A stretch of DNA of 32,000 bases. It comes from Candidatus Saccharimonadota bacterium. Lineage in GTDB: Bacteria > Patescibacteriota > Saccharimonadia > Saccharimonadales > Saccharimonadaceae. The stretch lies in NCBI GenBank assembly GCA_023898645.1, contig CP060232.1, positions 30,001-62,000 of the forward strand. Direction: 5' to 3'. Each line of letters starts with the position of its first letter. Position 1 is the first letter of the stretch. Of the stretch, positions 899 to 26,469 are shown in pieces. Both the position numbers and the translations under genes were made by a program. A model generated the notes under the pieces. It did not search any database. It had not been told where the DNA came from and saw only the letters and a list, made by a program, of their open reading frames with translations.

Positions 899-2386
899 AT
901 GCGTTTATTTTTATTGAAATCATATAGTTACGTTATGGCGAAATTAAACAGTCGATACTTTATGTTTGCTGTCCTTGCTTTGTTTGTGATTCAAGCACTT
1001 TGGATAGCTCTTAGTTTTCGTTTTTCAATGCTGTACGATGAAGCGTTTCATGTAGACGCTATAAAGTTATATAGCCATCAGATCTCACCGTATATTACAG
1101 ACCAGGCAACTTATTACGATAAATACGGTAGCCTAAGCCACGGCTGGGCTACATTGTTTCATTACGCGATGAGTTTTCCGTATCGCTTAATTTCTGTTTT
1201 TACGAACGATTTGGTAGTACGGGTTATTTCGCTACGCATTATAGACATTGCTATGGCAGCGACGGGAGTTTTCTTGCTTAGTGTGCTGTTTAGGAAGATG
1301 AAAATCAGACAGATATATATAAATATTACTCTTTTGATATATGTTCTCATTCCAATTACCCCATTTGTCGCTGCGACCATAAGCTATGACAATATGCTCT
1401 TGCCACTTACTGCTCTCTATTTCATCATGGGTATTGATCTACTAAAGAAAAAGAAAGTAGACGCGACCGATTACCTGAGGTTGATAATAATTGGATGTAT
1501 AGCGTCGCTTGTAAAGTTCACCTTTTTGCCGATATTTGCCGCAAGCGTACTGTTTATAGCTGTATTTATGTATAAGAAGCATTCTAAAGCTTTCTTTGTT
1601 GAATTTATAAAATCACTAAAGAAAAAATCAAAGAAAAGTATATATGTCTTAGTCTCACTTACTATAATCATTGTTGGGTGGTTTTCGTCGATATACTTAT
1701 ATAATCTTGCTGTTTATCACGCTGTAAACCCAGAGTGCTCAAGATTGATGAGTGAGAAAAGATGTGAAAGCAGTGGACTCGTGCAACGTAAAGAACAGGC
1801 GCTTGCCATAAGGAATGAGCTAAAGCAGACGGCAATGAACGCCGATCAATATATACAGTACTGGGTAAGTCATATGATCAACTGGTCGGTAACGACTGGG
1901 GCGCGCCCAAGTGATGGCGGAACCGTGGTAGCACAGCCAATAAAGTCTATATATAAGTTGATTTATATAGCTAGTTTTGTAGGCTTTGCTATACTACTTT
2001 ATTCATGGAGGTCTCTACACAAAGACGAAGGCTGGTATTTTCTTGTAACCATTACAGCGTCGCTGACGTTGGCGGAATTTTTGCAAAATTATCTTTTGTA
2101 TCAAAAACTGCTCTACCCTTTTTCTATACAGCCAAGGTATTTCCTCAGTGTCGTTCCGATAGTTATCGTCATGTGCATGATGGCGTGTGCTTTCGTGTTG
2201 AGGAAGGTAAAGCCGGAATATAAACTATTGGTGGTTGCTGTGTTCTTCATGCTTATGACTCAAGGGGGTGGGCTGACGACTCATATACTTTTAAGTCAAG
2301 ATACGTGGTATTGGGATAACTCTACGGTGAGAGATGTAAATGACACGGCAAAAAAGATTCTTCACCCACTAGTAATTGGATCGTGA
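899..2386 (+). CDS. Polytopic membrane protein, GT-C-fold glycosyltransferase-like (ArnT/PMT/GtrC-like)
   Basis: 495-aa ORF with roughly 10 or more hydrophobic segments. It has an acidic 'YDEAFH' motif just after TM1, where GT-C enzymes carry their DE/DD motif, and a large soluble loop (aa ~270-350). It lies directly downstream of a GT2 polyprenyl-P-sugar synthase-like gene. ATG 899 is preceded by TGcTACAAT (877-885). An alternative start at ATG 935 is preceded by TATAGT (923-928). Confidence 0.55.
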   Translation: MRLFLLKSYSYVMAKLNSRYFMFAVLALFVIQALWIALSFRFSMLYDEAFHVDAIKLYSHQISPYITDQATYYDKYGSLSHGWATLFHYAMSFPYRLISVFTNDLVVRVISLRIIDIAMAATGVFLLSVLFRKMKIRQIYINITLLIYVLIPITPFVAATISYDNMLLPLTALYFIMGIDLLKKKKVDATDYLRLIIIGCIASLVKFTFLPIFAASVLFIAVFMYKKHSKAFFVEFIKSLKKKSKKSIYVLVSLTIIIVGWFSSIYLYNLAVYHAVNPECSRLMSEKRCESSGLVQRKEQALAIRNELKQTAMNADQYIQYWVSHMINWSVTTGARPSDGGTVVAQPIKSIYKLIYIASFVGFAILLYSWRSLHKDEGWYFLVTITASLTLAEFLQNYLLYQKLLYPFSIQPRYFLSVVPIVIVMCMMACAFVLRKVKPEYKLLVVAVFFMLMTQGGGLTTHILLSQDTWYWDNSTVRDVNDTAKKILHPLVIGS

Positions 2387-3544: not shown

Positions 3545-4450
3545 ATGAATAAGGGTAAGAGTGAGCACAGCGATGAAGTGTGGCCAAATTTTTTGATAAT
3601 TGGTGAGCCACGAAGCGGTACTACGTCTTTGCACGACTGGCTTAGCATGCACCCAGATTTATACATGTCATCCGTAAAAGAGCCGCACTACTTTTCGTCG
3701 ATAAACTTTCCGAAAATAGAAAAGCAAATATTGCATACAACTCGCAGCAAAAGAAAATATTTGAGTTATTTCAAAGATGGCGCAAATAAGCCTTTTCGGG
3801 GTGAGTCGAGCACCTATTATTTGTCTGACCCTGAAGCACCAAGAAAAATAAAGAAAGCCATACCTGACGTAAAGCTGATTGCAGTGTTGCGCGAACCTGT
3901 TGATCGCGCGTTTTCGCACTATCTACTTTATAATCGACGAGGTACTCAGCAGCAATCGTTTACAGACGTTGTGAGTGAAAATCTGAAAGGTAAAACCAAC
4001 CCCGCGTATGACCTAGTAGAGCTAGGTAGGTATTATAAGCATCTGAAGAATTACGGCAAATATTTTGACAATGACCAGATACTAGTCGTGCTGTTTGATG
4101 ATTTGAAAAAAGAACCGCGTGTCGTTATAAAGCGAGTGCTTGATTTTTTGGGTGCCGATACGAGGGTGGTAGACAGTCTTAATATCAAGACAGCAAGCAA
4201 CGCTTATGCGCAACCACGCAACAAACTGTCGAACGCACTATTGTCTAATAGAATATTGACGAATATTGGCTTAAGAATAGTACCTCGACCTGCGTTGAAA
4301 AAGATCCGCACGAAATTATTGATGAGCGGGAAAAAGCCAGAAATTGATAAACGCGCCGAAACCACACTAATAAAGGTATATAGAAAGCAAATCGACCAAC
4401 TTGAAGTTTTATTAAATCAGGATTGTTCATCACTACGGAGGGTTAATTAA
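3545..4450 (+). CDS. PAPS-dependent sulfotransferase
   Basis: N-terminal 5'-phosphosulfate-binding loop 'IIGEPRSGTTSL' (PKxGTT-like). 3'-phosphate-binding region 'LIAVLREPVDRAFSHY' (R-x7-S). Size of about 300 aa. It is adjacent to the PAPS synthesis genes. Confidence 0.8.
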   Translation: MNKGKSEHSDEVWPNFLIIGEPRSGTTSLHDWLSMHPDLYMSSVKEPHYFSSINFPKIEKQILHTTRSKRKYLSYFKDGANKPFRGESSTYYLSDPEAPRKIKKAIPDVKLIAVLREPVDRAFSHYLLYNRRGTQQQSFTDVVSENLKGKTNPAYDLVELGRYYKHLKNYGKYFDNDQILVVLFDDLKKEPRVVIKRVLDFLGADTRVVDSLNIKTASNAYAQPRNKLSNALLSNRILTNIGLRIVPRPALKKIRTKLLMSGKKPEIDKRAETTLIKVYRKQIDQLEVLLNQDCSSLRRVN

Positions 4451-5536: not shown

Positions 5537-7252
5537 ATGCGAGAGACTGACGTACCGCGTGGAGGGAAACTAGTTGATTTGTTGGTTGGTAGCAAACGAG
5601 CTGCAGACGTAAAAAAGCAAAGCGCACAATACAAAAGTTGGAACCTGACACCTAGGCAGATTTGCGATACAGAATTGTTGATAAACGGCGGCTTTTCGCC
5701 GCTTAAAGGCTTCATGAATAAAGCAGATTACGAAAATGTTTGCAAAAACATGCGGCTTGCTGATGGTACGCTCTGGCCAATGCCAATCACGCTCGACGTA
5801 GACGAGATGTTTGCAAACAGTCTGAAAAAGGGCAAGAAGATTGCACTTCGCGACCAAGAAGGCGTGATACTAGCCATACTGACCGTTGGTGATGTGTGGA
5901 AGCCGAATAAATCCAAAGAAGCCGAGCAAGTATATGGCAAGGACGACAAAGCTCACCCTGCTGTCGCTTATTTGCACGATACTGCGGGTGATTACTATGT
6001 GGGCGGCACACTCGAAGGCTTGGAATTGCCAAGCTATTATGATTTCAACGAGCTGCGCTATACACCACAGGAGCTACGTAATCATTTTAAAAAGATGGGT
6101 TGGACGAAGATTGTGGCGTTTCAAACGCGCAACCCTATGCATCGTAACCACGCTGAAGCTGTGTTGCGTGCCGCTAAGCAGTCTGAGGCTGCGGTGCTGA
6201 TACACCCGGTTGTGGGCATGACGAAGCCGGGCGACGTAGACCACTATACGCGTGTACGAGTGTATAAGTCAGTGATTAATCGTTTTCCTGCGTCGACAGC
6301 TATGATTTCGCTACTCCCGCTGGCTATGCGTATGGGCGGCCCACGCGAGGCCGTGTGGCATGCGATTATTCGTAAAAACTATGGCGTGACGCATTTCATT
6401 GTGGGTCGCGACCATGCTGGTCCGGGCAAAGATTCTGACGGTAACGATTTTTATGACCCATTAGATGCCATGGCGCTGGCTCGTAAGTACGCCTCAGAGA
6501 TTGGAATTGAAATCATGGAGGCTGGTTTCCTATCTTACGTAAAGGAACTCGACAAATACATGGAGTCAAAGGAAGTGCCAGAGGGTATGGAAGTACTGAA
6601 TATATCTGGTACCGAACTACGCGCACGACTAGCAGAGGGTCGTGAACTACCCGAATGGTTTACATACCCAGAAGTGGCGACAGAGCTGCGCCGTACATAC
6701 AAGCCACGACACCAACAAGGATTTACAGTGTTTTTCACTGGCTTGTCGGGATCGGGCAAGTCGACAATTGCAAACGCGCTGATGGTTAAGATGATGGAGC
6801 AAGGTGGGCGAACCGTGACGCTGCTTGACGGTGACGTGGTGCGCAAAAATCTTTCTAGCGAACTAGGCTTTAGCAAAGAGCACCGTGATTTGAACGTAAC
6901 GCGTATCGGCTATGTGGCATCGGAGATATCCAAACATGGTGGCGTAGCAATATGTGCGCCGATTGCACCGTATGACGATGTGCGCAAAAAGGTGCGCGGT
7001 ATAGTAAAAGACAATGGCGGCATGTTTGTGCTAGTGCATGTAGCTACGCCACTCGAAGTGTGTGAAGATCGTGATCGCAAGGGGCTATATGCTGCGGCTC
7101 GTGCGGGTAAAATCAAGGAATTTACTGGTATATCTGACCCATATGAAGAGCCGGCAGATGCGGACGTGACACTACATACAACCGAAAATACACCAGAAGA
7201 GCTGGCAAATCAGATTTTGCTACACCTGGAAAAAGAAGGCTTGTTGCAATAA
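5537..7252 (+). CDS. sat/cysC: Bifunctional sulfate adenylyltransferase (ATP sulfurylase) / adenylylsulfate (APS) kinase
   Basis: ATP sulfurylase motifs 'FQTRNPMHRNHAE' and 'HFIVGRDHAGPG', with a PUA-like N-terminal domain. The C-terminal domain carries an intact APS-kinase P-loop 'FFTGLSGSGKSTIANAL' and 'LDGDVVRKNL... FSKEHRDLNVTRIG'. A GAGGAA SD lies at 5521-5526. Confidence 0.93.
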   Translation: MRETDVPRGGKLVDLLVGSKRAADVKKQSAQYKSWNLTPRQICDTELLINGGFSPLKGFMNKADYENVCKNMRLADGTLWPMPITLDVDEMFANSLKKGKKIALRDQEGVILAILTVGDVWKPNKSKEAEQVYGKDDKAHPAVAYLHDTAGDYYVGGTLEGLELPSYYDFNELRYTPQELRNHFKKMGWTKIVAFQTRNPMHRNHAEAVLRAAKQSEAAVLIHPVVGMTKPGDVDHYTRVRVYKSVINRFPASTAMISLLPLAMRMGGPREAVWHAIIRKNYGVTHFIVGRDHAGPGKDSDGNDFYDPLDAMALARKYASEIGIEIMEAGFLSYVKELDKYMESKEVPEGMEVLNISGTELRARLAEGRELPEWFTYPEVATELRRTYKPRHQQGFTVFFTGLSGSGKSTIANALMVKMMEQGGRTVTLLDGDVVRKNLSSELGFSKEHRDLNVTRIGYVASEISKHGGVAICAPIAPYDDVRKKVRGIVKDNGGMFVLVHVATPLEVCEDRDRKGLYAAARAGKIKEFTGISDPYEEPADADVTLHTTENTPEELANQILLHLEKEGLLQ

Positions 7253-7254
7253 AC

Positions 7255-8028
7255 ATGGCTGATTTGTTGGACGAGGTTATTGATTTGGCTAAGGTTGCTG
7301 GCGATGCAATCATGGAAGTATATGAGTCGGATGATTTTGATGTTGAGATCAAAGACGACAGCTCGCCCCTGACACGCGCCGACAAAGCCGCGCACGATGT
7401 CATAGTAAAAGGCCTAGCGAAAATTAGCGACTACGATATTGTTTCGGAGGAGGGCGAGGGCCGTAATCCTGCAACAGAGGCATACTGGCTAGTTGACCCG
7501 CTCGACGGCACCAAAGAGTTTGTGAAGCGCAACGGTGAGTTTACGGTAAATATAGCCTTGATAAAAGACAAAAGGCCGGTGCTCGGTGTGGTGTATGCAC
7601 CTGTGCTCGATGTTTATTATTGTGGAGACGTGCTGGCAAATCGAGCGATCAAAATCGAAAAAGGCGAACAAAAAGAGATCCATGCGACCCCTGCCGCAGG
7701 TTTGCCGACTATTGTCGTGAGTCGTTCACACAAAGATGAGCAAACACAAAAGTTGCTTGATTCAATTGGCGAATGTAACGAAGTGGCTATGGGGTCTTCG
7801 CTCAAGCTTTGTTTGGTTGCCGAGGGAGCTGCTTCGCTATATCCTCGCCTTGGTCCAACGAGTTTGTGGGATACTGCTGCAGCTGATGCTGTAGTTGTGG
7901 CTGCAGGTGGAGCGGTAAAAGATCTTGCGGGTGAAATGCTACGCTACGATCCGCGAGAAGACATATTGAATCCGTATTTTGTGGTTGAGTCTGCGGATAA
8001 TAGAATTGACTGGAAGGTTTGCTTGTAG
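7255..8028 (+). CDS. cysQ: 3'(2'),5'-bisphosphate nucleotidase (PAP phosphatase), inositol monophosphatase family
   Basis: Motifs 'SEE', 'WLVDPLDGTKEF' and 'WDTAAADAVVVAAGG'. Size of 257 aa. It starts 2 nt after the sat/cysC stop. Confidence 0.88.
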   Translation: MADLLDEVIDLAKVAGDAIMEVYESDDFDVEIKDDSSPLTRADKAAHDVIVKGLAKISDYDIVSEEGEGRNPATEAYWLVDPLDGTKEFVKRNGEFTVNIALIKDKRPVLGVVYAPVLDVYYCGDVLANRAIKIEKGEQKEIHATPAAGLPTIVVSRSHKDEQTQKLLDSIGECNEVAMGSSLKLCLVAEGAASLYPRLGPTSLWDTAAADAVVVAAGGAVKDLAGEMLRYDPREDILNPYFVVESADNRIDWKVCL

Positions 8029-11702: not shown

Positions 11703-13109
11703 CTACTGTTTTTCTAGATATTCCCTAAGCGCTTGTTTCCACTCGCGTGGCGTGAAGCCTGCGGCCTTTATTTTACCAAGGTCGAGCGTACTTTGTAAGG
11801 GGCGAGGAGCGACACCTTCTTTGCCGGCGTAATATTCCTCGGTTGTGACTGGAGTGATGTCGTTGCCCGATTTGCCGACAAATTCATATACCTCTTTGGC
11901 GATGTCGGCCCAGCTGGCTGGCTCGCCTTCGTTTGACAAGTTATATGTGCCATAAGAGGCGTTGCTAGTAAGCAGATGAGAGATTGCTGCAGCGAGGTCT
12001 TGCGTGAAGGTGAGGCGACCGATTTGGTCGCTAACGACGCTTGGTTTTACGTCACGTTCAGCCAAAGACTTCATGGTGAGTACGAAGTTTTTACCGTCGC
12101 CGATGACCCAACTGGTACGTAGTAGATAGTGTCGTGGCGTAGTGCTGACGATTAGATCACCCGCCGCTTTGCTTTGCCCATAAACACTAAGCGGTGAAAG
12201 CGCTTCGTTTTCGGTGTGAGGGTCTTGTGTGCCGTCGAATACATAGTCGCTAGATACGTGGACGAGCGTAATGTCGTTTTCGTTGCAGATTTTAACTAAG
12301 TTTGTGAGCGCGGTGGCATTTGCGAGCCATGAGTCTTTGCGGCCGTCTGGAGTTTCGGCGAGGTCAACGGCTGTATAAGCAGCAGCGTTGAGAATAGTCC
12401 CGTAATCACGCCAGCGTCGACCTGTGATAATTGCAGGGTCACTCATGTCAAAGGTGTCGCGGTCAACTTGCTCGGCGTCAGGAAATACTGCAGAAAGCGC
12501 TCGGCCGAGTTGACCGTAGGCGCCGACAATCAGGGTCTTTTTTGGTCTGATAGGTGTGGCATCTTTGAGTGACGGGTGGTTTTTGTCTTTTTCGGATACC
12601 TCGCATTCACTGAGCGGAATTGGCCAGTCGATACCTAGTGTCTCGTCAAACATGCTGACATTTGAATATTGTGCATCTGCCGACCAATGGTCGTTTACTA
12701 GGTAGCTATAGACGGTTTCGTCTTCGAGAGTTTGATAGCCATTAGCAACGCCACGGGGTACGAAGACGGCTTTGGTTGGGTCTACTTCGGTTGTAAAGAC
12801 TTTGCCGTAGGTTTCGCTGCCCTCGCGAATGTCTACCCAGAAGCCAAAGATTTTGCCTGACCCGAGTGAAATAAATTTATCCCACGGTTCGGCATGGATG
12901 CCACGAGCAACACCGCGCTTGTCGTTGAACGAGAAATTGTTTTGTACTGGTTTTAGGTCGGGCAGGCCAAGTTTGAGCATCTTTTCGCGTTGCCAATTTT
13001 CTTTGAACCAGCCACGGTTGTCGCCGTGGAGTATGAGGTCGTAGACGACGAGCCCTTTGATGGGCGTTTCTGTTACTTTTAGTTCTTTTTTAAATTCGAG
13101 TTCTGACAT
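11703..13109 (-). CDS. rmlC-rmlD: Fused dTDP-4-dehydrorhamnose 3,5-epimerase / dTDP-4-dehydrorhamnose reductase
   Basis: The N-terminal ~180 aa form a cupin epimerase ('[21 protein letters not shown]', '[11 protein letters not shown]', '[12 protein letters not shown]'). The C-terminal ~285 aa form an SDR reductase ('[13 protein letters not shown]', '[12 protein letters not shown]', 'YGQSKAAGD'). It is a single uninterrupted 468-aa ORF. Confidence 0.88.
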
Positions 13110-13115
13110 GAATTC

Positions 13116-13151
13116 AGTATATCACCTAGTGGTCAACTACCATGGTAAGAT
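13116..13151. promoter_or_regulatory. Divergent -10 boxes for rmlCD (minus) and the EEP gene (plus)
   Basis: Minus strand: TGaTATACT-gaattc-ATG (hexamer 13116-13121). Plus strand: TGGTAAGAT-cgtaggt-GTG (13143-13151). Confidence 0.45.
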
Positions 13152-18434: not shown

Positions 18435-20039
18435 ATGCGGAGGCTAATTCTAGCGATCGTTGTATCTCTCGTATGGGTGGCGGGTAGTCATACCGGAGTT
18501 GCTAATGCATTGTCGTCGGGCGACAAGCTCCTTGTTAGTGCAGATAATACCTTTTACGTATATGTGAAGGCTGGTGAAAAGCTGAGCGTTGCTTTTATTC
18601 GTTCTCAATATTACGAGGTTAATATTAATATGCTGCGCGTAGATGTTAGCATTACGGTAGATGGGCCGGATGTTAAACAACAAAAGTGTATTGCAAAAAG
18701 AGATATAGCTGTTGGTAAGGGTTGTGTATTTAAGCCCGTGACAGCAGTGAAGACTGGTATATGGCGAATTAATTTTACACCCGCAAAGGGTGCGAGGCCC
18801 TTCGAAGAGGTTTCACCAACTGTACGTTGGGGAAAGAATCTATTTTCGTGGGATATTACAGTTACGGGTAATAATGGTGAGCAACACGGGCGTATGTGGA
18901 CAGAAGGGTATGCTACGAGACAGTCAGATCCAAACCAAGCCGATGCTACTAATGATTTCACATACTACTATGTTAGCGAAGACGGATATATATATAAACA
19001 AACAGAGAATCAGTACAATGGTCAGGTTTCAATTTTATCGGCAGATTCGATAGGAATTCGCAAGGATGGGGGTTGTATATCAGTGTATCAAAGTACAGAG
19101 GTGGAGGATAAAGACTACACGCCAGCATTGGGTAGCTGCGGCGATAAATATAAGTTGTTTTTTGAGCAACCAGCTGGTGATTTGCCAACCAACTCCGTCC
19201 GTTGGGATGGAACCAAAGATTGGATGCTTCCCAATGTTGGTCACCCAGTAATCAGTGAGCTTCACTTCATACCGGACGGCTCCAAGGATCAGCTTTCGGG
19301 CAATATAACGTTTTTCTTGCACAATTTCATAGGTCAATACCAAGTCAAGGTAGACACCGATGGCGACGGTAGTTTCGACGGACAAAACGACGTGACGCTC
19401 AACGAGCAGATGAGCGGTTTGTCGAATGATTTATTGCGTATACCTTTTCAGGGCGTAGATAAAACGGGCGGAATTATATCGCCATCGAGCAAGATCGGTA
19501 TAGAAGTTGTAATCACAAGGGTTGCAGAGATTCATTTTGTAGCCAGTGACGTTGAGGGAAGAGGTGGGATTGCTGTTACCCGACTTAACGGTGATAATGC
19601 TCCGACGACACGACTGTGTTGGAACGATGCTGACCTGGTGCCAATAGCGGATATACGCTTCACTACGACAAATGTTGATGGACGAGATTGTCCTGAGAGT
19701 GGAGGCGGTATACATGGATGGGCATATGACAATTACTCATGGGGAAACGGTCGGTATATCGACGATTGGACATATGCAACCGCCAAATTAGATGGCAAAA
19801 ATACTGTGACGTACCCAGAATCAACTACGGAAGCAATTGCAAAAAAGCAGAGTAACTGGCTACCGGCAATACTTGCCGGTGGGGCCGTAGTACTGATTGG
19901 TTCTGTCGTGGTAGTTGTTGTGATAGTTCGACGCCGAAAAACACCCCCACCAGTTGCGCCGCTAGCGCCTCCAGGCGTGCAGTCGACGGGGTCGCAAGAG
20001 CCAACAAGTGAACAGCCGTCGGACCTTGATAGGTACTAG
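18435..20039 (+). CDS. Hypothetical cell-surface protein: signal peptide, large ectodomain, C-terminal TM anchor, basic stop-transfer and Pro-rich tail
   Basis: Signal-like 'MRRLILAIVVSLVWVAGSHTGVANA'. Asp-rich 'DTDGDGSFDGQNDV' (Ca-binding-like). C-terminal 'WLPAILAGGAVVLIGSVVVVVVIVRRRKTPPPVAPLAPPG'. I recognise no enzyme motif. Confidence 0.6.
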   Translation: MRRLILAIVVSLVWVAGSHTGVANALSSGDKLLVSADNTFYVYVKAGEKLSVAFIRSQYYEVNINMLRVDVSITVDGPDVKQQKCIAKRDIAVGKGCVFKPVTAVKTGIWRINFTPAKGARPFEEVSPTVRWGKNLFSWDITVTGNNGEQHGRMWTEGYATRQSDPNQADATNDFTYYYVSEDGYIYKQTENQYNGQVSILSADSIGIRKDGGCISVYQSTEVEDKDYTPALGSCGDKYKLFFEQPAGDLPTNSVRWDGTKDWMLPNVGHPVISELHFIPDGSKDQLSGNITFFLHNFIGQYQVKVDTDGDGSFDGQNDVTLNEQMSGLSNDLLRIPFQGVDKTGGIISPSSKIGIEVVITRVAEIHFVASDVEGRGGIAVTRLNGDNAPTTRLCWNDADLVPIADIRFTTTNVDGRDCPESGGGIHGWAYDNYSWGNGRYIDDWTYATAKLDGKNTVTYPESTTEAIAKKQSNWLPAILAGGAVVLIGSVVVVVVIVRRRKTPPPVAPLAPPGVQSTGSQEPTSEQPSDLDRY

Positions 20040-20117: not shown

Positions 20118-21242
20118 ATGTCAAAACCTGAAGAAATGCTACCGCCGCAAAATGAGCCCGAAAGTGCTCAACTTGACTACGTAGAAGAACTGCCCGATTT
20201 AGCGACTATACAAGAGCGGCACCCTGATTGGCCAAAGCTTGAATTGTCGTTTTATTTTGCGCCCCATGGCAACAACAAGGACATGGAAGGTATAGCGCCT
20301 CAATTAGCAAAGGCAGACATTTTACTCTATGAAGAAGTTGTGGCGCATGAGGATGATGTCGCAATTCGGTACGAGAACTTAGATGATTTTAATAAGCTTT
20401 CTGTTAATCCTGCTGTGAGTCTGCGCCGCGCAATGAGAGACGGCGAAGTAAGCGGGTCGTCGTATGAGCCGCTATTAAAAGGCATCTATAAGTCAAAAAA
20501 AGCAATCGGTTTGATAGATATAGGCGACACTAATTATGAACGAGAATTAGTGCAAGAAATGCAAACTTTGTTTGACCAGTCCTGGATAAAAGGAATGGAG
20601 TATTCGGAAGCTTTGAGTGCGTACAACGAAACTTGGGCAAGGATGGGTGAACTGATGCACCAAAGAGAAGTGTTGATGGTGGAGAAATTTGAAAAAGAAA
20701 TCGACCGAATACTATATGCACGACCGGATTTGCTAAAGCGCGAAAACGTAAGGATCCTTATTTCAATGGGAGCGGGCCATACGACGCTTCGTCACTTGTT
20801 TCGACAGGCTGGTATGCGGTCTGAACGGAACTTTTCTGCCGAGTCGCCCTATACATTTAACTACCTTAACGAGCTAATAAGGACGCATATGTTTAATCGC
20901 GAACCGTCTGAAAGGCTTGTGAAGCAAGCGTTGACCGAAAGTATTCTAAGTAGGTCGCTCGATGAAATGCGAGAGAATTTTTCCATACGCACAGACGACG
21001 ACGACACCTATAAACGAAGGATTGTTTCGTTGCTGACAGACGACGAGCTAGAGGGTGCTTATGAAGCGTGGAGTGAGCATGCTAATTTACGTGCGTACTT
21101 TGATAACGTGCTCCAGCGACACGACGTAGATCACCTAGCTAGAAGCGACAAAGAAATACGCGAATTTATAAAAAGGCCCAAGAAAACTGCACGGAATCTG
21201 GCGAAGATTGCTTTGCGCGACTTGTTTCGTAAGGGCAAGTAA
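20118..21242 (+). CDS. Hypothetical cytoplasmic protein (weak TIKI/TraB/ChaN-superfamily-like motifs)
   Basis: 374 aa, acidic, with no TM segment or signal peptide. 'FYFAPHGNN...ADILLYEE', 'HQREVLMVEKF' and 'ILISMGAGHTTLRHLF' loosely resemble the GxxH / E / ERDxxM / VGAGH motifs of TraB/TIKI-like proteins. This assignment is low confidence. Confidence 0.5.
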   Translation: MSKPEEMLPPQNEPESAQLDYVEELPDLATIQERHPDWPKLELSFYFAPHGNNKDMEGIAPQLAKADILLYEEVVAHEDDVAIRYENLDDFNKLSVNPAVSLRRAMRDGEVSGSSYEPLLKGIYKSKKAIGLIDIGDTNYERELVQEMQTLFDQSWIKGMEYSEALSAYNETWARMGELMHQREVLMVEKFEKEIDRILYARPDLLKRENVRILISMGAGHTTLRHLFRQAGMRSERNFSAESPYTFNYLNELIRTHMFNREPSERLVKQALTESILSRSLDEMRENFSIRTDDDDTYKRRIVSLLTDDELEGAYEAWSEHANLRAYFDNVLQRHDVDHLARSDKEIREFIKRPKKTARNLAKIALRDLFRKGK

Positions 21243-21303
21243 AAAGACCTAATTTTAAGCTGCTTTTAACACAATTTTTACTTTCTGTGTATAATGGGGG
21301 GTA

Positions 21304-24147
21304 ATGAAAGTTTGGAACGCGAGGAGTATTGTCCTTTATTTGTCTGTTGCTATGGCTCTGTTTACAATTGCTTTGTTACCAAAGTTGGTGAGTGCAGACG
21401 CACTGTCATGGACAAACAATTCTCCGGTAGTTGAGAGCGTAAAAGATGCGAGTAGCGATTGGAAATGGCGAGATTTGTGCCAAGCTAAATACAATACAGC
21501 CGCCGCGACAACTATAGACGTAGTGGGTACCGGTGGTCAGCCTACGCCAAAAACTAACTGTGTAATGGGTGAGGACGAAAATTATCAGTTGTTTAGTTAC
21601 AACAACTTCCATGGCCTGGCTGTAAAATTTGTTGGCGACAAAGCCTCACATGCCATAAATGGGATTACATGCACGTACTCATGTATTTATATGCCGAGCA
21701 GGGATGTATTAGCTGTGGTTAGTCACACTACGTACATTGGCGCCGGTCAGATAGACATTTACAAAAACTTTGTCAGTAAGTTGAAGCTTCAGGGTGGTGA
21801 GAATGTACTTAATAATCATTTTTATGCCGTAGGACAAACACAACCTGACCAGACCATTAGTAATGATGCTGGTAGTGGGGCGCCAGGCTTTTTGGGTGTA
21901 GCTAAGCATATGCAACACTCACCAAACGACAAGTGGTTGGTGGTGGAATTTGTAGGTCTGGGGTTGGTACGAATAGATATGGATACCATGCAAATGGTGA
22001 AGTTCTCTGATTGGAAAACCAACTACACGATAGGGTATAGCCCAACTATAGAATTCAACATTACTAACGACGGTCAGCATGTTGCCGTGCTTGGGCAAAA
22101 TACATTAAATTCCATCTATGACATTTCAGGTAGTTGCGGTAATGTGTTGCCGGATAACGCGATATACGCTGACCTGGTAAAACTACAAGATACACCGTGT
22201 CCTGTGGTCGAAGTTGTTCACGGACCAGATATTGGTAATGGCGTAATTGATCGTCCGAATGCAATGTATCAGCCAAAATTTAGCGAAGATAGCGGCGAGA
22301 TTAGCTTTTACGCGACATCGTATGATAGTGCGATTGTGCCGAAATATGTGACTTTGCGGGCGGCGAATTATATTGGTCCACAGCCGTTAGACTACCTGGC
22401 TTTGGGTGATTCGTATTCGAGTGGTGAGGGGGACACTACGAAAAAGACCGACGGAACGAAGTATTATTTACCAGGTACTGATGTCGCTAGCGATTATGCA
22501 AATGGAGTCCCGGAAGAGAAGTGTCATATTAGTAGCAGGTCGTATCCATTTTTGCTACGAACCTTAAGTGGGATTGCTGATGACAAGATGAGGTCAGTCG
22601 CCTGTAGTGGGGCAGTTGGATCGGATATTTATGGGTGGTCGAGTTCGTTTGATGACAATGGTCATTTCCTCGGACAATACGAGGATGGTAAGCCAAGGCT
22701 TGCGGGTTTACCAAACATCAAGCAGCTACAAGACCAGGCAAGAAGCAACTTTACACCCGGTCGTATACAGCAGATAGAGTTTATAGAGAGGAACAAACCA
22801 AAAGCTACTACACTTAGCATCGGGGGTAACGATGTGTTATTTGGCGAAATCATTAGGAGCTGTGTCACGAAGATAGGCCTAGATAGTATTTGTGAGTGGG
22901 CTCAGAGCAACCAGAGTGACCCGGGCGCTCCAGGTCTAAAACGACTGGGTGAGATGATAGGCGGAGAGTATAGCGCTCTCCAAAACTTGTACATGCAACT
23001 CAAAAACGCTTCACCCGAAACGAAAATATATGTATTAGGTTATCCGCAATTCATAGACAGCTCATCATCCCACTGTCCAACAAATTTTGGTCTAAATCAG
23101 ACAGAGAGACAGATGATTACCGAAGGGGTTGCTTACATGAACCAAGTCATTAAGGCGGCCGCGAATGCTGCCGGTGTGTACTACGTGGATATCGAGAATA
23201 GTCTTGGTGGCCACGTATTGTGCGGCTCAGAGGCTTCGTATGTGAACGGTACTGCAACGGGTGTCATTGGCATGATTGCACCAAATATATATGAGCAACA
23301 GGAGGCCTATCATCCTGACGCCGATGGGCACTTGGCCGTATTTAAAACGATAGGCTCCGGCCTTAACGGCCAGACGCTAACCTCTTTTGGTAATTGCAAC
23401 CAAATAATCATATGCCCAGCTTCAAACCAAGCAACACAGCCGCCAATCCCTAGTTATTTTAGGATTAGTCCGACCATCGACACGATTATTATTAAGGCTA
23501 TTAATTTCGTAGTGTCCGCGGGTAAATCTATAGGTGACGGCATTACCTCAATCGTCAAAAGCCAGGTGCTAAATATTCACTCGCCCTCACGTTATTTTGC
23601 CGCCGGTAGTAATGTATCTGTAAATATTTACTCCAATCAGGTTAATCTCGGTACGCTTGTTGCGAATGAAAATGGTAGCATAGACGCCTCGATAACGGTT
23701 CCGTCTGGTCTTGAAGCAGGTTACCATACGATTATCTTCACCGGCACGACATACTCGGGTGACCCTATCGAGTATACGCAGATTGTCCTCGTGCAAGGTT
23801 CTAATCCCGATGATATCGACGATGACGGCATAATTGATAGCAAAGACCCTTGCCTGTTCGTTACTGCTAGTGGGGTTGATGGTGACATGGATGGTATAGA
23901 TGACGCATGTGATCCTGTGCTCGGAGACACGCCGCCCGCAACGCCTGTTACTACGCCAACACCAGCGCCTACGACTCCGTCACCTACGCCAACTCCTTCC
24001 TCCGCTCCTACACCAAGTCCCAAACCAAGCCATCATGGTCATGGTAAGTCAAGTATATTGTCATTTGTTAAGTTTATACATAGTTTAATAGTGTCATTTG
24101 TGAAACTTGTGTTGAGTGTCGCAAGACACGCGCTATTTAGATTTTAA
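21304..24147 (+). CDS. Large secreted/surface protein with a central SGNH (GDSL-like) hydrolase domain, Asp-rich Ca-binding repeats, a Pro/Thr linker and a hydrophobic-basic C-terminal tail
   Basis: N-terminal signal/anchor 'IVLYLSVAMALFTIALLPKLVSADA'. SGNH blocks: 'LALGDSYSSGEG' (GDS at 22405-22413), 'VACSGA', 'SIGGNDVLF' (22822-22833) and 'AYHPDADGH' (from 23311). 'DIDDDGIIDSKDPC' and 'DGDMDGIDDACDP' are thrombospondin-type-3-like DxDxDGxxDxxDxC repeats. The PT-rich linker is followed by '...SILSFVKFIHSLIVSFVKLVLSVARHALFRF'. Confidence 0.8.
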   Translation: MKVWNARSIVLYLSVAMALFTIALLPKLVSADALSWTNNSPVVESVKDASSDWKWRDLCQAKYNTAAATTIDVVGTGGQPTPKTNCVMGEDENYQLFSYNNFHGLAVKFVGDKASHAINGITCTYSCIYMPSRDVLAVVSHTTYIGAGQIDIYKNFVSKLKLQGGENVLNNHFYAVGQTQPDQTISNDAGSGAPGFLGVAKHMQHSPNDKWLVVEFVGLGLVRIDMDTMQMVKFSDWKTNYTIGYSPTIEFNITNDGQHVAVLGQNTLNSIYDISGSCGNVLPDNAIYADLVKLQDTPCPVVEVVHGPDIGNGVIDRPNAMYQPKFSEDSGEISFYATSYDSAIVPKYVTLRAANYIGPQPLDYLALGDSYSSGEGDTTKKTDGTKYYLPGTDVASDYANGVPEEKCHISSRSYPFLLRTLSGIADDKMRSVACSGAVGSDIYGWSSSFDDNGHFLGQYEDGKPRLAGLPNIKQLQDQARSNFTPGRIQQIEFIERNKPKATTLSIGGNDVLFGEIIRSCVTKIGLDSICEWAQSNQSDPGAPGLKRLGEMIGGEYSALQNLYMQLKNASPETKIYVLGYPQFIDSSSSHCPTNFGLNQTERQMITEGVAYMNQVIKAAANAAGVYYVDIENSLGGHVLCGSEASYVNGTATGVIGMIAPNIYEQQEAYHPDADGHLAVFKTIGSGLNGQTLTSFGNCNQIIICPASNQATQPPIPSYFRISPTIDTIIIKAINFVVSAGKSIGDGITSIVKSQVLNIHSPSRYFAAGSNVSVNIYSNQVNLGTLVANENGSIDASITVPSGLEAGYHTIIFTGTTYSGDPIEYTQIVLVQGSNPDDIDDDGIIDSKDPCLFVTASGVDGDMDGIDDACDPVLGDTPPATPVTTPTPAPTTPSPTPTPSSAPTPSPKPSHHGHGKSSILSFVKFIHSLIVSFVKLVLSVARHALFRF
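23926..24030 (+). repeat. Low-complexity Pro/Thr/Ser-rich linker coding region
   Basis: It translates to DTPPATPVTTPTPAPTTPSPTPTPSSAPTPSPKPS. This also explains the spurious Gly/Val-rich antisense ORF at 23721-24023. Confidence 0.9.
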
Positions 24148-24202
24148 AACCAACCAGTAAAAGAACGGGCGAAAGATTTATTTTGCTATACTGATAATGT
24201 TT

Positions 24203-24577
24203 ATGGTAAGACAAAAGACAAAACAGACTCTTCAGGCGCTCGAAAAGCGCGCAACCCTAGAGAGTGGTAGGTCTGCGAGTAGAAAATTAGCACGAAGCAC
24301 GCGCAAAAGCACCAAACGCTTTAGGTGGGGGATAGTTGTTGTTGCAGCACTAACAGTTTTCATAATTAGCTGGATTTCTGGAATTTTTTCTTGGGGTGTA
24401 AAATACGTTGAATGTCAAAAACCGCCAACATCCATAACGTCGCCCGGACTGTGGTCGGGCTCGTCGATAGGCGTTCCTCAAGAGCCGGGTGATGCCAACT
24501 ATGGCCCTGGAATTGGAAAAACGTATACATGTACGGCAAAAAAGGATATGTATCCAGACAATTCACCACGACGGTAA
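24203..24577 (+). CDS. Small bitopic membrane protein, paralogue A (basic N-terminus, 1 TM, ~55-aa two-Cys ectodomain)
   Basis: 'MVRQKTKQTLQALEKR...' then the TM 'WGIVVVAALTVFIISWISGIFSW', then 'ECQKPP...PGDANYGPGIGKTYTC'. It is homologous to 25457-25801. ATG 24203 aligns with the paralogue's start and lies 10 nt after TGcTATACT (24184-24192). The tracked ORF starts at 24197. Confidence 0.65.
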   Translation: MVRQKTKQTLQALEKRATLESGRSASRKLARSTRKSTKRFRWGIVVVAALTVFIISWISGIFSWGVKYVECQKPPTSITSPGLWSGSSIGVPQEPGDANYGPGIGKTYTCTAKKDMYPDNSPRR

Positions 24578-24610
24578 AGAGTTTAGTCTTAGTGTGTTAA
24601 ATTTTGGTAC

Positions 24611-25327
24611 AAGAGGACGTTCCTCCTAAGGTGTAATTTCATACCAGTTATAGTACAGTGAAAAGTATGCCGTCGCGAAATGTCATAAAAGAACAAGCCC
24701 CAGAGTCGTACTATCATGTGTATGCCAGGGGTTCGAACAAGCAAAAGATATTTCTTGAAGCGGCTGATTATAAATATTTTCTCAATCTCTTTGAACGTTA
24801 TCTGTCTGACGAACCGGCAATAAGTAAGACTGGCGAGATTTACCCCCACTTCAAAAACCAAGTTATCCTCCTCACGTATTGTCTCATGAGCAACCATTTT
24901 CATCTGCTTATGTACCAAAAGGACATCCCCTCGTTGGAGAAATTTATGCGCAGCCTGATGACGAGCTATAGTAGGTACTTTAATCTGAAATACAAACGTA
25001 CTGGCTCGCTGTTTGAGAGTAGGTACAAAGCGTCGAGAATTGACAGCAATTCGTACTTGCGGCACATCACCAGGTATATTCACCTCAACCCCAGACGATG
25101 GCAGACTTATAGATATTCAAGTTTAAGGCATTATGCCGAGCCTGCCGAAGCGCCCGACTGGATAGACCCAAGGGTCATATTGGAGGTTTTTGACGACACC
25201 CACCAGTACATGGAATTTGTAGCTGACTATGAAGAGCTGCGGGATGAAATAGCCGACCTGAAGCACCAATTAGCCGATCGGTGATAAAACTGACAACGTT
25301 ACTATCTGTTAGAGGACAGTCCTCTAA
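24611..25327 (+). mobile_element. IS200/IS605-type or RAYT-like unit: HUH/Y1 transposase gene bracketed by two similar hairpins
   Basis: Left hairpin GAGGA-cgt-TCCTC (24613-24625, within aAGAGGACGTTCCTCCTAAGg). Right hairpin TTAGAGGAC-a-GTCCTCTAA (25309-25327). Both share AGAGGAC...TCCTC(C)TAAG. I saw no terminal inverted repeats or target duplication. Confidence 0.55.
24667..25284 (+). CDS. HUH-family Y1 (IS200-like / REP-associated tyrosine, COG1943-type) transposase
   Basis: 'YYHVYARGSNKQKIF', the HUH motif 'LMSNHFHLLM' and catalytic-Tyr region 'RHITRYIHLNPRR'. The start is ATG 24667, or GTG 24658 as in the ORF track. Confidence 0.8.
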   Translation: MPSRNVIKEQAPESYYHVYARGSNKQKIFLEAADYKYFLNLFERYLSDEPAISKTGEIYPHFKNQVILLTYCLMSNHFHLLMYQKDIPSLEKFMRSLMTSYSRYFNLKYKRTGSLFESRYKASRIDSNSYLRHITRYIHLNPRRWQTYRYSSLRHYAEPAEAPDWIDPRVILEVFDDTHQYMEFVADYEELRDEIADLKHQLADR

Positions 25328-25331
25328 GTAA

Positions 25332-25400
25332 CATAGTCCATTTGTGGCGGTTGTGAAATTTATATTGAGCACGATTAGACACGCACTATTTAGACACTAA
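25332..25400 (+). pseudogene. Relic 3' end of a second large surface-protein gene (paralogue of the 21304-24147 C-terminus)
   Basis: The 69 nt at 25332-25400 align without gaps to 24079-24147 (my hand count is 48/69 identical). The translation HSPFVAVVKFILSTIRHALFRH* compares with HSLIVSFVKLVLSVARHALFRF*. The frame is closed by TAA at 25329-25331, inside the right hairpin of the transposase unit. Confidence 0.7.
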
Positions 25401-25456
25401 CTGGGGTTAAATCCATAAGGGTTTTACTTTGTCACATTTGGTATACTAAAAAAGTT

Positions 25457-25801
25457 ATGGTAAGAAAAAAACCGACAGCTGAGACACTTAGTAGGCTCGA
25501 ATCAAAACCCACTAAGGGTGTGCCTATTCGTAAGCAAAAGGAATCATTAAGTGAGGTTCGGGCGCGGAGACAGTTGGTCTGGCTGGCGTGTTTATTGGCT
25601 GTCATTGTTCTAGGGTTTATCACAGGGATGATTCAATATACAACTAAATTGGCAGTCTGCGGGGAGCCGCCATTGACACAAAGCCTTGTCGTCGAGGGCG
25701 GTAGTCCAGTTTTGCATCCAGGTGAAGAAGGCTATGGACCAGGACTTCTCAACACATACTACTGCAAAGATGAAGCAAAGAGAAAGTTTGGTACGGACTA
25801 A
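25457..25801 (+). CDS. Small bitopic membrane protein, paralogue B
   Basis: 'MVRKKPTAETLSRLESK...' then the TM 'LVWLACLLAVIVLGFITGMI', then 'VCGEPP...PGEEGYGPGLLNTYYC'. It has the same architecture and conserved Cys/PP/YGPG/TYxC positions as 24203-24577. TGgTATACT (25439-25447) lies 9 nt upstream of the ATG. Confidence 0.7.
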   Translation: MVRKKPTAETLSRLESKPTKGVPIRKQKESLSEVRARRQLVWLACLLAVIVLGFITGMIQYTTKLAVCGEPPLTQSLVVEGGSPVLHPGEEGYGPGLLNTYYCKDEAKRKFGTD

Positions 25802-25834
25802 TCTGATCAATAGCACCATATATTTTGATTTTAT

Positions 25835-26374
25835 ATGAAACAAGAAAAGCATAGATTTAGCACCACGGCGGCGTTAAGCGCTGGTTGTCTTGTGGTACTT
25901 GCGCTTGCCTGTAGTTATAACGAGGGTTTAGTAAAGCAAAACGACGCTTATCTCGCAAGTAAGCAATGGGGTAGTTATGACTATGGCGTTGAACCGACGT
26001 ATGTAATAGCGATGGCATGCATTGCTATATTTGTCATGGCCTTCACGGCGCTCTTGCTACTGAGGAAATCGGAAAAGCAGAAAAGAAGTAACGTAGGAGT
26101 ATTGGTTTTCCCTGCGATACTACTACTAATAATTAATGCTTTGTGCATGTTAGACCTTTTGCTATCTAGCTGGTCAATTCCTCAACGATGCGGGGAAGGG
26201 TTCGGGCTGGGAAACTGTTTTTTGTTCGACGGACTGGGTACAATCTTTTACTACGCATCAGTCCCTCTCTTCTATTTGATTGCTGTAATCTTGTTGGTGC
26301 TGAATCGGAAATTTGGGACAAAACAGCGGAAGCTTCGGAGGTTAAAACGGAGTGACGTACCAGGAATTCTATAG
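25835..26374 (+). CDS. Hypothetical 4-TM membrane protein
   Basis: 179-aa ORF with four hydrophobic segments and a basic C-terminus (RKFGTKQRKLRRLKR). I recognise no family. Confidence 0.5.
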   Translation: MKQEKHRFSTTAALSAGCLVVLALACSYNEGLVKQNDAYLASKQWGSYDYGVEPTYVIAMACIAIFVMAFTALLLLRKSEKQKRSNVGVLVFPAILLLIINALCMLDLLLSSWSIPQRCGEGFGLGNCFLFDGLGTIFYYASVPLFYLIAVILLVLNRKFGTKQRKLRRLKRSDVPGIL

Positions 26375-26469
26375 ATTAGGAATCACTGTCGCCAGCTAAA
26401 GTGTATGATCTTGTATATCTTGGTGACGAGCACTGATTTGTTGAAGTGTTTTGCAAAAGAGGTAATTAA

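Follow-up and report, generated by a model that had tools for sequence, protein, structure and literature searches.

Probable remnant of an orphan C-terminal module behind a surface SGNH hydrolase gene in a Saccharibacterium

The locus considered here lies in a stretch of 32,000 nucleotides (nt) from a Candidatus Saccharimonadota bacterium (assembly GCA_023898645.1, contig CP060232.1, positions 30,001 to 62,000; hereafter, the window), where the gene of a large SGNH (GDSL) hydrolase is followed by two genes of small membrane proteins, and where the 3' end of the large gene recurs, in a diverged form, in front of the second small gene. Here we argue that this second copy (25331-25400) is probably what a truncation has left of an orphan C-terminal module, derived from the SGNH gene (21304-24147). 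The repeated unit would extend from the conserved, Ca-binding DGIDDACDP junction of the large protein, via the stop codon and the expression signals, to a small membrane-protein gene, and would be found downstream of the full-length gene. The first-pass annotation of this DNA took the same repeat for the trace of two tandem (large, small) gene pairs, the second large gene being almost entirely lost, and proposed that the shared tail could be a new sorting or anchoring signal. The features on which the argument depends are the following (positions are those of the window).

21304-24147, plus strand: secreted or surface SGNH (GDSL) hydrolase, 947 amino acids (aa), assigned from Pfam, from sequence matches in the PDB and from AlphaFold2 (AF2) and Foldseek.
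23914-24078, plus strand: start of the variable C-terminal module, with the sequence following DGIDDACDP (VLGDTPPATP...), a PT-rich linker and a His/Gly patch.
24052-24117, plus strand: internal tandem duplication within the tail, 33 nt (11 codons), ILSFVKFIHSL / IVSFVKLVLSV, 22/33 nt identical at offset 33.
24079-24147, plus strand: tail-coding segment, copy 1 of the repeat (HSLIVSFVKLVLSVARHALFRF and stop), the C-terminal part of a 30-residue amphipathic helix.
24184-24192, plus strand: extended -10 promoter-like element TGCTATACT, 36 nt past the tail stop and 10 nt before the S1 start codon.
24203-24577, plus strand: S1 (USN96621.1), bitopic protein of 124 aa, subtype A, with a basic N-terminal helix, one transmembrane (TM) helix and an ectodomain of about 50 aa with two Cys.
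24606-25328, plus strand: RAYT/IS200-like unit of 723 nt, with the left palindrome at about 24612-24630, the gene at 24667-25284 and the right palindrome at 25309-25328.
25331-25400, plus strand: relic, copy 2 of the repeat (HSPFVAVVKFILSTIRHALFRH and stop), probably the 3' remnant of orphan C-terminal module 2.
25439-25447, plus strand: extended -10 promoter-like element TGGTATACT, 38 nt past the relic stop and 9 nt before the S2 start codon.
25457-25801, plus strand: S2 (USN96623.1), bitopic protein of 114 aa, subtype B-like; BLASTP against S1, E 6e-12; hidden Markov model (HMM) of the S family, E 2e-27.

The repeat itself is robust. The gapless alignment of 24079-24147, which comprises the last 22 codons and the stop codon of the 947-aa gene, with 25332-25400 has 48/69 identical nt, as claimed in the first-pass annotation and now borne out by a recount and by blastn (64 nt, 71.9% identity, E 2-4e-5); only the number of identical residues had to be corrected, from the hand-counted 12/22 to 13/22. 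The best match of the same 69-mer elsewhere in the window, on either strand, has 33/69 identities (null mean 17.6, sd 3.6), and the maximum among 200 shuffled queries is 37, so that the match stands out against a shuffled-sequence model. A degenerate 44-nt pattern built from both copies matches these two sites only, with 0 matches expected. Along the diagonal of the repeat, the homology starts abruptly at 24078/25331 and ends with the stop codon; within it, the blocks AGACACGCnCTATTTAGA and TTGTGAAA are identical in the two copies and keep a constant distance to the -10 element. Tail and relic differ at 21 sites, which fall on the three codon positions as 9/4/8 (hand count); this distribution is not significantly uneven and, hence, is no evidence for or against past selection at the protein level. 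The frame of the relic is closed by a TAA at 25329-25331 and lacks a credible start codon; the relic itself would no longer be translated.

The evidence that turns this repeat into a remnant of something longer comes from a sister strain, L141 (Logan contig SRR7638747_3196), which was found by exact-sequence look-up and aligns with the window as follows.

Window 21000-24426, L141 5707-9126: 92.4% identity; the large gene and the 5' part of S1.
Window 24427-24605, plus strand: strain-variable segment, the ectodomain-coding part of S1 and its 3' flank, with no homologue at this position in L141.
Window 24606-25327, L141 9267-9989: 93.6% identity; the RAYT unit with both palindromes.
L141 9990-10942 (953 nt): no counterpart in the window; orphan module 1 and the 5'-proximal two-thirds of orphan module 2.
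Window 25336-26379, L141 10943-11992: 88.7% identity; the relic, S2 and a 179-aa gene.

Thus, L141 carries three modules, namely, the full gene's own and two orphans. Orphan module 1 consists of a PT remnant, a tail ending in NHGHGRNMTVIDAKFIHGLLAAIMRLVFSITSHILFRV (..SITSHILFRV, then stop), the element TTTGCTATACT and the gene of a 101-aa protein with three TM helices. Orphan module 2 is a 77-codon frame that is open from the junction onwards (..PVLGDTPPATPSPTPS..RFTHGPFVAVVKFILSTIRHALLRH, then stop), ends in RHALLRH and is followed by S2. The opening 79 nt of this frame correspond to -228 to -150 of the large gene, which is exactly the sequence directly past the junction, with DGIDDACDP itself ending 234 nt ahead of the last base of the stop codon; in the corresponding comparison, window 23913-23992 and L141 10791-10873, the 5' end of module 2, are 78% identical. 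No similarity to the large gene was detected upstream of -228 in the L141 orphans. By virtue of this alignment, the relic can be recognized as the last 69 nt of orphan module 2. In the window, the gap adjoins the right hairpin of the RAYT/IS200-like unit, and what is left is the last 69 nt of tail 2, the promoter-like element and S2. Since any insertion in L141 must have brought in precisely the missing 5' part of a module, and in the right frame, it is more parsimonious to infer that the 953 nt were deleted in the lineage of the window, flush with the right RAYT hairpin.

The same comparison bears on two other explanations. The first, that the similarity is a chance match or a terminal repeat of the RAYT/IS element, could draw on the start of the relic 3 nt past the right RAYT palindrome and on the 60-nt direct repeats that flank the RAYT gene of another locus, L047. 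However, 48/69 identities compare with 33 for the best unrelated match, 25327 is the last position of the RAYT block common to the window and L141, and the L141 counterpart of the relic sits 950 nt away from that block. Neither does the left side of the unit resemble the relic: a local alignment of the RAYT left flank, which should continue the relic, scored 15, as did 288/500 shuffles, and the sequence after the left hairpin matched tail and relic no better than 357/1000 and 351/1000 shuffles, respectively. We regard this explanation as refuted by the repeat statistics, the left-hairpin test and the L141 alignment, with next to no probability left to it.

The second explanation is that of the first-pass annotation, with two full tandem copies of the large and the small gene and a tail, RHALFR[FH], that serves as a sorting or anchoring signal in need of a small partner. 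A part of it stands: the relic does derive, in all likelihood, from a longer copy, and the tail, the promoter-like element and the small membrane-protein gene do form a real repeated unit, of which L141 contains a third representative. Each of the three L141 tails lies directly upstream of a small membrane-protein gene, the tails being different and the proteins belonging to different partner families; in L012, the closest homologue (57% identical), the protein sequence of the tail is kept and the same order of tail, promoter and (basic) small protein is found. What does not stand is the second full-length large gene. The orphans in L141, L023, L026 and L027 begin at or near the junction, and the upstream approximately 2.6 kb of the large gene has no homologue in them; given the lack of homology upstream of the junction, nothing points to a second complete gene. 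As this proposal also implies an obligatory pairing of tail and small protein that other loci contradict (see below), we consider it very unlikely as a whole.

Analogous relics of the 3' end occur in at least 12 other Saccharibacteria loci and involve three unrelated tail types. Examples are given below, with positions of the large gene relative to its stop codon.

L007: -66 to +74 copied, 97.9% identity over 141 nt.
L009: -29 to +63, two copies.
L001: -23 to +67 copied.
L029: -89 to +5 copied.
L025: -56 to +4 copied.
L038: -112 to +60, 90.7% identity; the relic, ...LMITAAILFAIVGLTTAIIIWRHHHAKSTTTI and stop, corresponds to a classical TM anchor.
L002 (a 3-kb contig): three relics of up to about 330-380 nt, the longest with a tblastn E of 4e-28.

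In L023, L026 and L027, whole C-terminal domains have been copied, the copies starting at -461, -489 and -494, i.e. 40-70 nt upstream of the junction, with 72-77% identity, and each is followed by a gene of a 3-TM protein. The clearest example of an orphan module in the family is an intact open reading frame (ORF) of 191 codons in L026 (8670-9245), which contains the TSP3 (thrombospondin type-3) junction and a whole C-terminal domain of the QGxxCE type, a domain without a Pfam match, and overlaps the start of the 3-TM gene. Copying of the 3' end is independent of the tail sequence. In L007 and L009, the Shine-Dalgarno sequence of the small gene (AAGGAG) and its GTG start codon are located inside the last codons of the large gene, and the Shine-Dalgarno sequence and start are similarly placed in L038; hence, an expressible duplicate of the small gene must carry a part of the tail along.

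The junction itself is a conserved element of the large protein: in 52 sequences, D866, D867, C869 and D870 are nearly invariant. The sequences past this DDACD junction, in contrast, are variable and include the amphipathic tail, a TM helix with a basic tail, the QGxxCE domain and others. In the AF2 model of the window protein, residues 876-917 form a disordered PT linker (pLDDT, the per-residue confidence of the model, <50) that is followed by a single 30-residue helix, 917-946. The hydrophobic moment of this helix is 0.41 over 32 aa, a value equalled by 14/2000 shuffles, and 0.54 for the best 18-mer; its mean Kyte-Doolittle hydropathy of about 1.8 is compatible with a true TM helix as well. 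A PT/PS linker with an Ile/Val/Lys-rich helix of about 30 residues is found in some 17 of the 150 best family representatives, with ends such as ...FQKFIFKF, ...LLQRLFRF, ...KSLFRFF, ...QKLRFRLW and ...IKRLFRW, so that the sole motif recurring in the 17 aligned tails is a basic-aromatic end similar to [QK][KR]LFR[FW]. Such recurrence could be counted in favor of the signal proposed in the first-pass annotation.

It does not, however, make the tail a sorting signal. In the alignment of the 17 tails, no signature motif precedes the helix, and the variable PT/PS linker runs straight into it. An HMM of the tail, applied to 32,812 ORF segments from the window, from 47 SGNH loci of Saccharibacteria and from 80 other loci (1.15 Mb in all), matched the SGNH large proteins and the relic of the window and nothing else; a protein search with the 43-aa tail (E up to 10) produced no matches, but is uninformative because it missed the parent protein too. 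Among the ORFs of the window, there are no sortase, exosortase or rhombosortase domains; L001 does have a sortase nearby, yet its large protein lacks this tail. A signal of the LPXTG, PEP-CTERM or GlyGly-CTERM kind is thus at odds with the restriction to one protein family in this 1.15 Mb and with the missing motif, finds no processing enzyme encoded in the window, and should be dropped as a tempting but unsupported idea. The anchoring half of the proposal fares better: the C-terminal module is conserved, and the model of the tail makes it most likely a membrane anchor, in which a stalk leads into a helix that is amphipathic or weakly hydrophobic and ends in basic and aromatic residues, and by which the enzyme would be held at the membrane.

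The small proteins, too, were correctly perceived as homologous in the first-pass annotation; they are paralogues. S1 and S2 are 30% identical (BLASTP E as listed above) and share the pattern C-x-x-PP ... PG-[DE]-x-x-YGPG ... Y-x-C. In the AF2 model of S1 (pLDDT 75.6), an N-terminal helix precedes the TM helix, and the ectodomain, which carries the two Cys, has three strands; a search of the PDB folds with this model gave no match (best E 7.8), and the family matches no Pfam or NCBIfam model. It is also rare, with 20 clusters retrieved by a profile search among 5.8 billion proteins.

The linkage of the S family to the large SGNH gene is solid because it is seen from both sides. When approached from the small proteins, all contigs with room upstream (L001, L003, L007, L009) show one large homologue and then 2-7 tandem small paralogues; when approached from the large protein, the S-family HMM finds members directly 3' of the large homologues in 11-12 of the 46 Saccharibacteria genomes that were fetched in this way. 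The association expected in the first-pass annotation does, therefore, exist elsewhere, irrespective of the type of tail, but it is not an obligatory pairing with this tail. The S family accompanies large proteins that end in a Cys-containing domain (...PQGxxC[ED]; L001, L003, L007, L009), large proteins that end in a classical TM helix with a basic tail (L034-L036, L038, L042), and others; conversely, the tail-bearing gene of L013 is followed by a 3-TM protein and that of L014 by no small membrane protein.

Directly 3' of SGNH homologues, the place of the S family is also taken by at least three other families of small proteins with several TM helices, namely, a 3-TM family of about 100 aa, an L026-type 3-TM family and the 179-aa family, and mixed arrays are common (L013 3973-4269; L057, with four copies; L017, L015, L002; L141 10235-10540; L023/L026/L027; L029, L025). 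In the window, the array is closed by a member of the last of these families.

25835-26374, plus strand: multi-TM protein of 179 aa, with homologues beside SGNH genes and no significant Pfam family.

According to jackhmmer, this family is present in L141, L025 and L029, and in L029 it begins right after the large gene. The small proteins are presumably functional partners, be it of the enzyme as such or of the C-terminal module, and could belong to the anchor or receptor type or to the inhibitor or immunity type.

In agreement with the first-pass annotation, both copies of the repeat are followed at a similar distance by TGnTATACT and then by ATGGTAAGA, which is located at 24203 and 25457, 10 and 9 nt after the respective TGnTATACT. 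The window contains four occurrences of TGNTATACT, where 0.85 would be expected by chance, at 1987-1995 (plus strand), 13116-13124 (minus strand), 24184-24192 and 25439-25447, and three of the four sites sit 6-10 nt before a start codon; one of them precedes a fusion gene of rmlC and rmlD that starts at 13109. Downstream of the tail of L012 and in module 1 of L141, TTTGCTATACT is likewise followed by about 10 nt and an ATG. A scan for the TTGACA/TATAAT consensus with at least 4/6 matches per hexamer did not call the TGnTATACT sites, and the promoter assignment relies on the extended -10 element together with its overrepresentation and the conservation of its place. These data suggest extended -10 promoters and leaderless transcription in this organism: with TGCTATACT located only 10 nt before the start of S1, the mRNA would be leaderless or nearly so.

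The strains differ along this locus in an uneven manner. Segments of the window diverge from L141 by as little as about 1% and by as much as 29%; the 5' half of S1 is at 29% and the PT linker at 24%. The S1 ectodomain belongs to subtype A in the window, whereas that of L141 (9127-9266) is B/C-like, despite the 92% identity of the large genes. The relic and the spacer differ at 2/121 nt only (relic 1/65, spacer 1/56), whereas third codon positions differ at about 11-14%. This contrast gives some substance to the possibility that the relic DNA is kept as a promoter element or regulator site for S2, at about -55 to -125, and so does the fixed distance of AGACACGCnCTATTTAGA and TTGTGAAA from the -10 element. 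However, the tract of low divergence (25336-25589, 3/254 nt, with flanks at about 13%) covers not just the relic and the spacer but also codons 1-44 of S2 (133 nt), including their synonymous sites, which points to a recombination tract and means that the conservation of the relic is no proof of function. Furthermore, the DNA blocks common to the two copies in the window are absent from the orthologous tail of L012 despite the same promoter there, and folding revealed no significant conserved RNA or DNA structure in the tail and the spacer (z 0.2-0.3). We therefore hold a cis-regulatory role of the relic to be improbable.

A bolder alternative is that each tail and its small protein form a cognate pair and that recombination at the junction loads an orphan module onto the full gene, altering the display or the partner of the enzyme. 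The orphans of L141, L023, L026 and L027 keep the junction; the three L141 tails are different and are combined with different partner families; the ectodomain type of the S protein at the first array position differs between the window and L141 as well as between L007 and L009; and the locus is a mosaic not only in the window and L141. The large proteins of L007 (511-3774) and L009 (114-3377) are about 99% identical except for aa 410-490 or so in the SGNH domain (28-44%), and the first downstream S gene switches from subtype A to C between these two loci, a single case in which enzyme and partner may co-vary. A precedent for such switching has been published (PMC3150448). Against it, no strain was found in which the main module equals an orphan of another strain, many relics are too short to be reloaded (23-112 nt), and the anchors are not obviously under diversifying selection. 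Such switching is, in our judgment, possible but not probable, although it deserves more credit than a regulatory role of the relic. With the same reserve one can envisage a new polymorphic cassette system in the phospholipase loci of Saccharibacteria, with exchangeable membrane-docking modules, each cognate to the adjacent small protein as its receptor, anchor or inhibitor; if so, recombination at the junction would let strains vary how, or beside what, the lipase is displayed on the surface of the episymbiont.

Returning to the remnant of an orphan module as the preferred explanation, several observations weigh against it or limit its reach. The direction of the indel was deduced by parsimony from one sister contig of a metagenome assembly. 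The near-identity of relic and spacer between the strains could mean functional DNA, although a recent recombination tract fits equally well. In the window, the promoter-like element sits in the spacer, not in the tail, so that hitch-hiking with expression signals does not, on its own, explain why the tail was kept. Finally, the modules appear to be anchors rather than toxins, and the analogy with the loci of contact-dependent growth inhibition (CDI) and Rhs proteins, from which the idea of orphan modules is borrowed, would then cover the architecture only. With these reservations, the following scenario can be envisaged: modules would arise by partial tandem duplication or by displacement via recombination at the conserved junction, as proposed for CDI/Rhs, and the 953-nt loss at the RAYT hairpin would have left the last part of one of them in the window lineage.

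The 947-aa protein matches Lipase_GDSL_2 (PF13472) above the Pfam cut-off (E 2.2e-12), and its sequence matches in the PDB are the Streptomyces phospholipase A1 4HYQ (E 1.6e-10) and the lipase 5MAL. With the AF2 model (pLDDT 81.9; pTM, its global score, 0.82), Foldseek finds 4HYQ (E 1.8e-12, TM-score 0.79), 5MAL and 1ESC at target-normalised TM-scores of 0.79-0.81. The order of domains is a signal/TM helix, a beta-propeller-like N domain, the SGNH domain, an Ig-like domain, TSP3-like Ca-binding repeats (the TSP3 match is weak), the PT linker and the C-terminal helix. The catalytic blocks I (GDS), III (GxND) and V (DxxH/HPN) are present within the SGNH fold; across the 52 sequences, G368, D369, S370, N509 and H670 never vary and G508 and D510 hardly do, and G368, D369, N509 and H670 are invariant in an alignment of 150 sequences, too. 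The family counts 1172 representatives at E<1e-30. The 46 GTDB loci with homologues of the large protein are nearly all labelled Saccharibacteria/Saccharimonadales, or unspecifically, with two labelled Dongiaceae and Parcubacteria; the NCBI label of the metagenome-assembled genome from which the window comes, 'Candidatus Nomurabacteria bacterium' (locus tags H6797_00240-00255), may be wrong.

Saccharibacteria are obligate epibionts, most of which have lost lipid biosynthesis. One member has been reported to be unable to make fatty acids (PMC6031116). Given this loss, a conserved, surface-anchored enzyme resembling phospholipase A1 could plausibly serve the epibiont to obtain lipids from its host.

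The RAYT/IS200-like unit between S1 and the relic contains a gene (24667-25284, 205 aa) of a Y1 HUH transposase-like protein, with a Pfam Y1_Tnp match (PF01797) of E 7.5e-10 and 39.4 bits against a cut-off of 23, whereas the score of the NCBIfam model REP_Tyr_transpos (NF047646), 40 bits, is below the 80-bit cut-off. The window, L047, L048 and L022 all retain the HUH and Tyr motifs (NHFHLL, ESRYKAS), which have been lost in the homologue of L054. The right hairpin has a fold z-score of -2.4, and similar palindromes flank the gene in L047, L048 and the metagenomic relatives L063-L067; in many relatives, the two palindromes are almost identical, which is typical of RAYT/REP units. No further copies of the palindromes, such as dispersed repetitive extragenic palindromes (REPs), were seen in the 32-kb window. 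In 6/47 SGNH loci, the window and 5/46 others (window 24606-25328; L047 8222-8957; L048 10838-11570; L022, L054 and L021), a gene of the RAYT type (29-55% aa identity) lies 3' of the large gene and in the same orientation, which may reflect either conserved synteny or a preferred site of insertion. The more than 565 metagenomic matches to RAYT relatives include 80 fetched loci, 33 of them with more than 3 kb of upstream sequence, and none of the 80 has an SGNH gene nearby, so that the RAYT element is not a dedicated part of the system.

Directly 5' of the SGNH gene, at 18435-20039 and 20118-21242, lie the genes of two proteins without Pfam matches that are conserved in L141, a secreted protein of 534 aa, whose C-terminal TM helix is followed by a cytoplasmic tail rich in Pro, and a cytoplasmic-looking protein of 374 aa. 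The wider window is a region of surface polysaccharide genes, with glycosyltransferases, dTDP-rhamnose genes, the pathway of 3'-phosphoadenosine-5'-phosphosulfate (PAPS) with a sulfotransferase, Bac_transf and Wzy_C. A single ORF at 11703-13109 (minus strand) fuses the RmlC (dTDP-4-dehydrorhamnose 3,5-epimerase) and RmlD (reductase) domains. The sulfotransferase, a fused ATP sulfurylase/adenosine 5'-phosphosulfate (APS) kinase for PAPS synthesis and a CysQ-like gene of the inositol-monophosphatase family are located at 3545-4450, 5537-7252 and 7255-8028, respectively. The gene content hints at a sulfated surface glycan in a Saccharibacterium.

Our search of the literature returned no paper describing this locus; several known systems resemble parts of it. 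The Streptomyces enzymes 4HYQ, 5MAL and 1ESC share with the window protein the SGNH fold and the catalytic blocks; the window protein, however, is four times larger and adds the beta-propeller, the Ig-like domain, the TSP3 repeats, the stalk and the anchor. Similarly, the transposable unit has the Y1 HUH fold, the size of about 200 aa and the palindromes on both sides in common with RAYTs and with TnpA of IS200/IS605, but scores under the NCBIfam equivalog cut-off and has no dispersed REP copies in the window.

As regards the tail, the substrates of the LPXTG/sortase, PEP-CTERM/exosortase and GlyGly-CTERM/rhombosortase systems also carry a C-terminal hydrophobic helix with basic residues after a low-complexity linker; unlike those signals, the tail has no motif in front of its helix, is confined to one family in the 1.15 Mb searched, has no processing enzyme nearby and is accompanied by a small protein without an enzyme-like domain. 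Another parallel is provided by PBP5 and PBP6, the DD-carboxypeptidases of E. coli, where a terminal amphipathic helix holds the enzyme at the outer face of the cytoplasmic membrane. The hydrophobic moment, 0.4-0.54 here, is about 0.5 for the PBP5 tail; the putative anchor helix of the window protein has more residues (30 aa) and a higher content of Ile, Val and Lys, comes after a long PT stalk and shows no sequence similarity to that of PBP5. Lipase genes followed by genes of membrane-anchored or periplasmic partners are known from the lipase-specific foldases (Lif) and from the Tle effectors with their tandem Tli immunity genes. The present locus shares no sequence or fold similarity with these systems, the S ectodomain of about 50 aa has no PDB match, and there is no secretion-system context.

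The architecture as a whole resembles that of the CDI/Rhs loci, where orphan fragments start at a conserved junction, lack initiation signals and are followed by a small expressed partner gene, with insertion sequences sometimes interspersed (PMC3150448). Both kinds of loci combine a conserved body with a variable C-terminus, the junction being VENN or PxxxxDPxGL there (PMC3150448, PMC3482391) and DGIDDACDP here, and both have a small gene right downstream, arrays of 3' fragments that start at or close to the junction without initiation signals, each with an intact small gene behind it, transposase genes and rearrangements between strains. Unlike in CDI/Rhs, the modules of the Saccharibacteria seem to be anchors, either a PT stalk with an amphipathic helix or a classical TM helix, or else a small Cys domain, with no toxin domain detected; the conserved body contains an enzymatic SGNH domain; the partner genes code for small membrane proteins that fall into at least four families without mutual relationship; and the host phylum is Saccharibacteria. 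Taken together, the data portray an enzyme gene that is followed by fast-changing arrays of undescribed small membrane proteins and orphan copies of the enzyme's own C-terminal module, an architecture so far described for CDI/Rhs toxin-immunity loci, which singles the region out as a hot spot of recombination that diversifies between strains and raises the hypotheses that the small proteins are anchors or receptors of the enzyme or, alternatively, partners in self-protection of the immunity type. By analogy, we would describe this organization as one of orphan modules of the CDI/Rhs kind, new in that the modules are anchors and the partners are undescribed.

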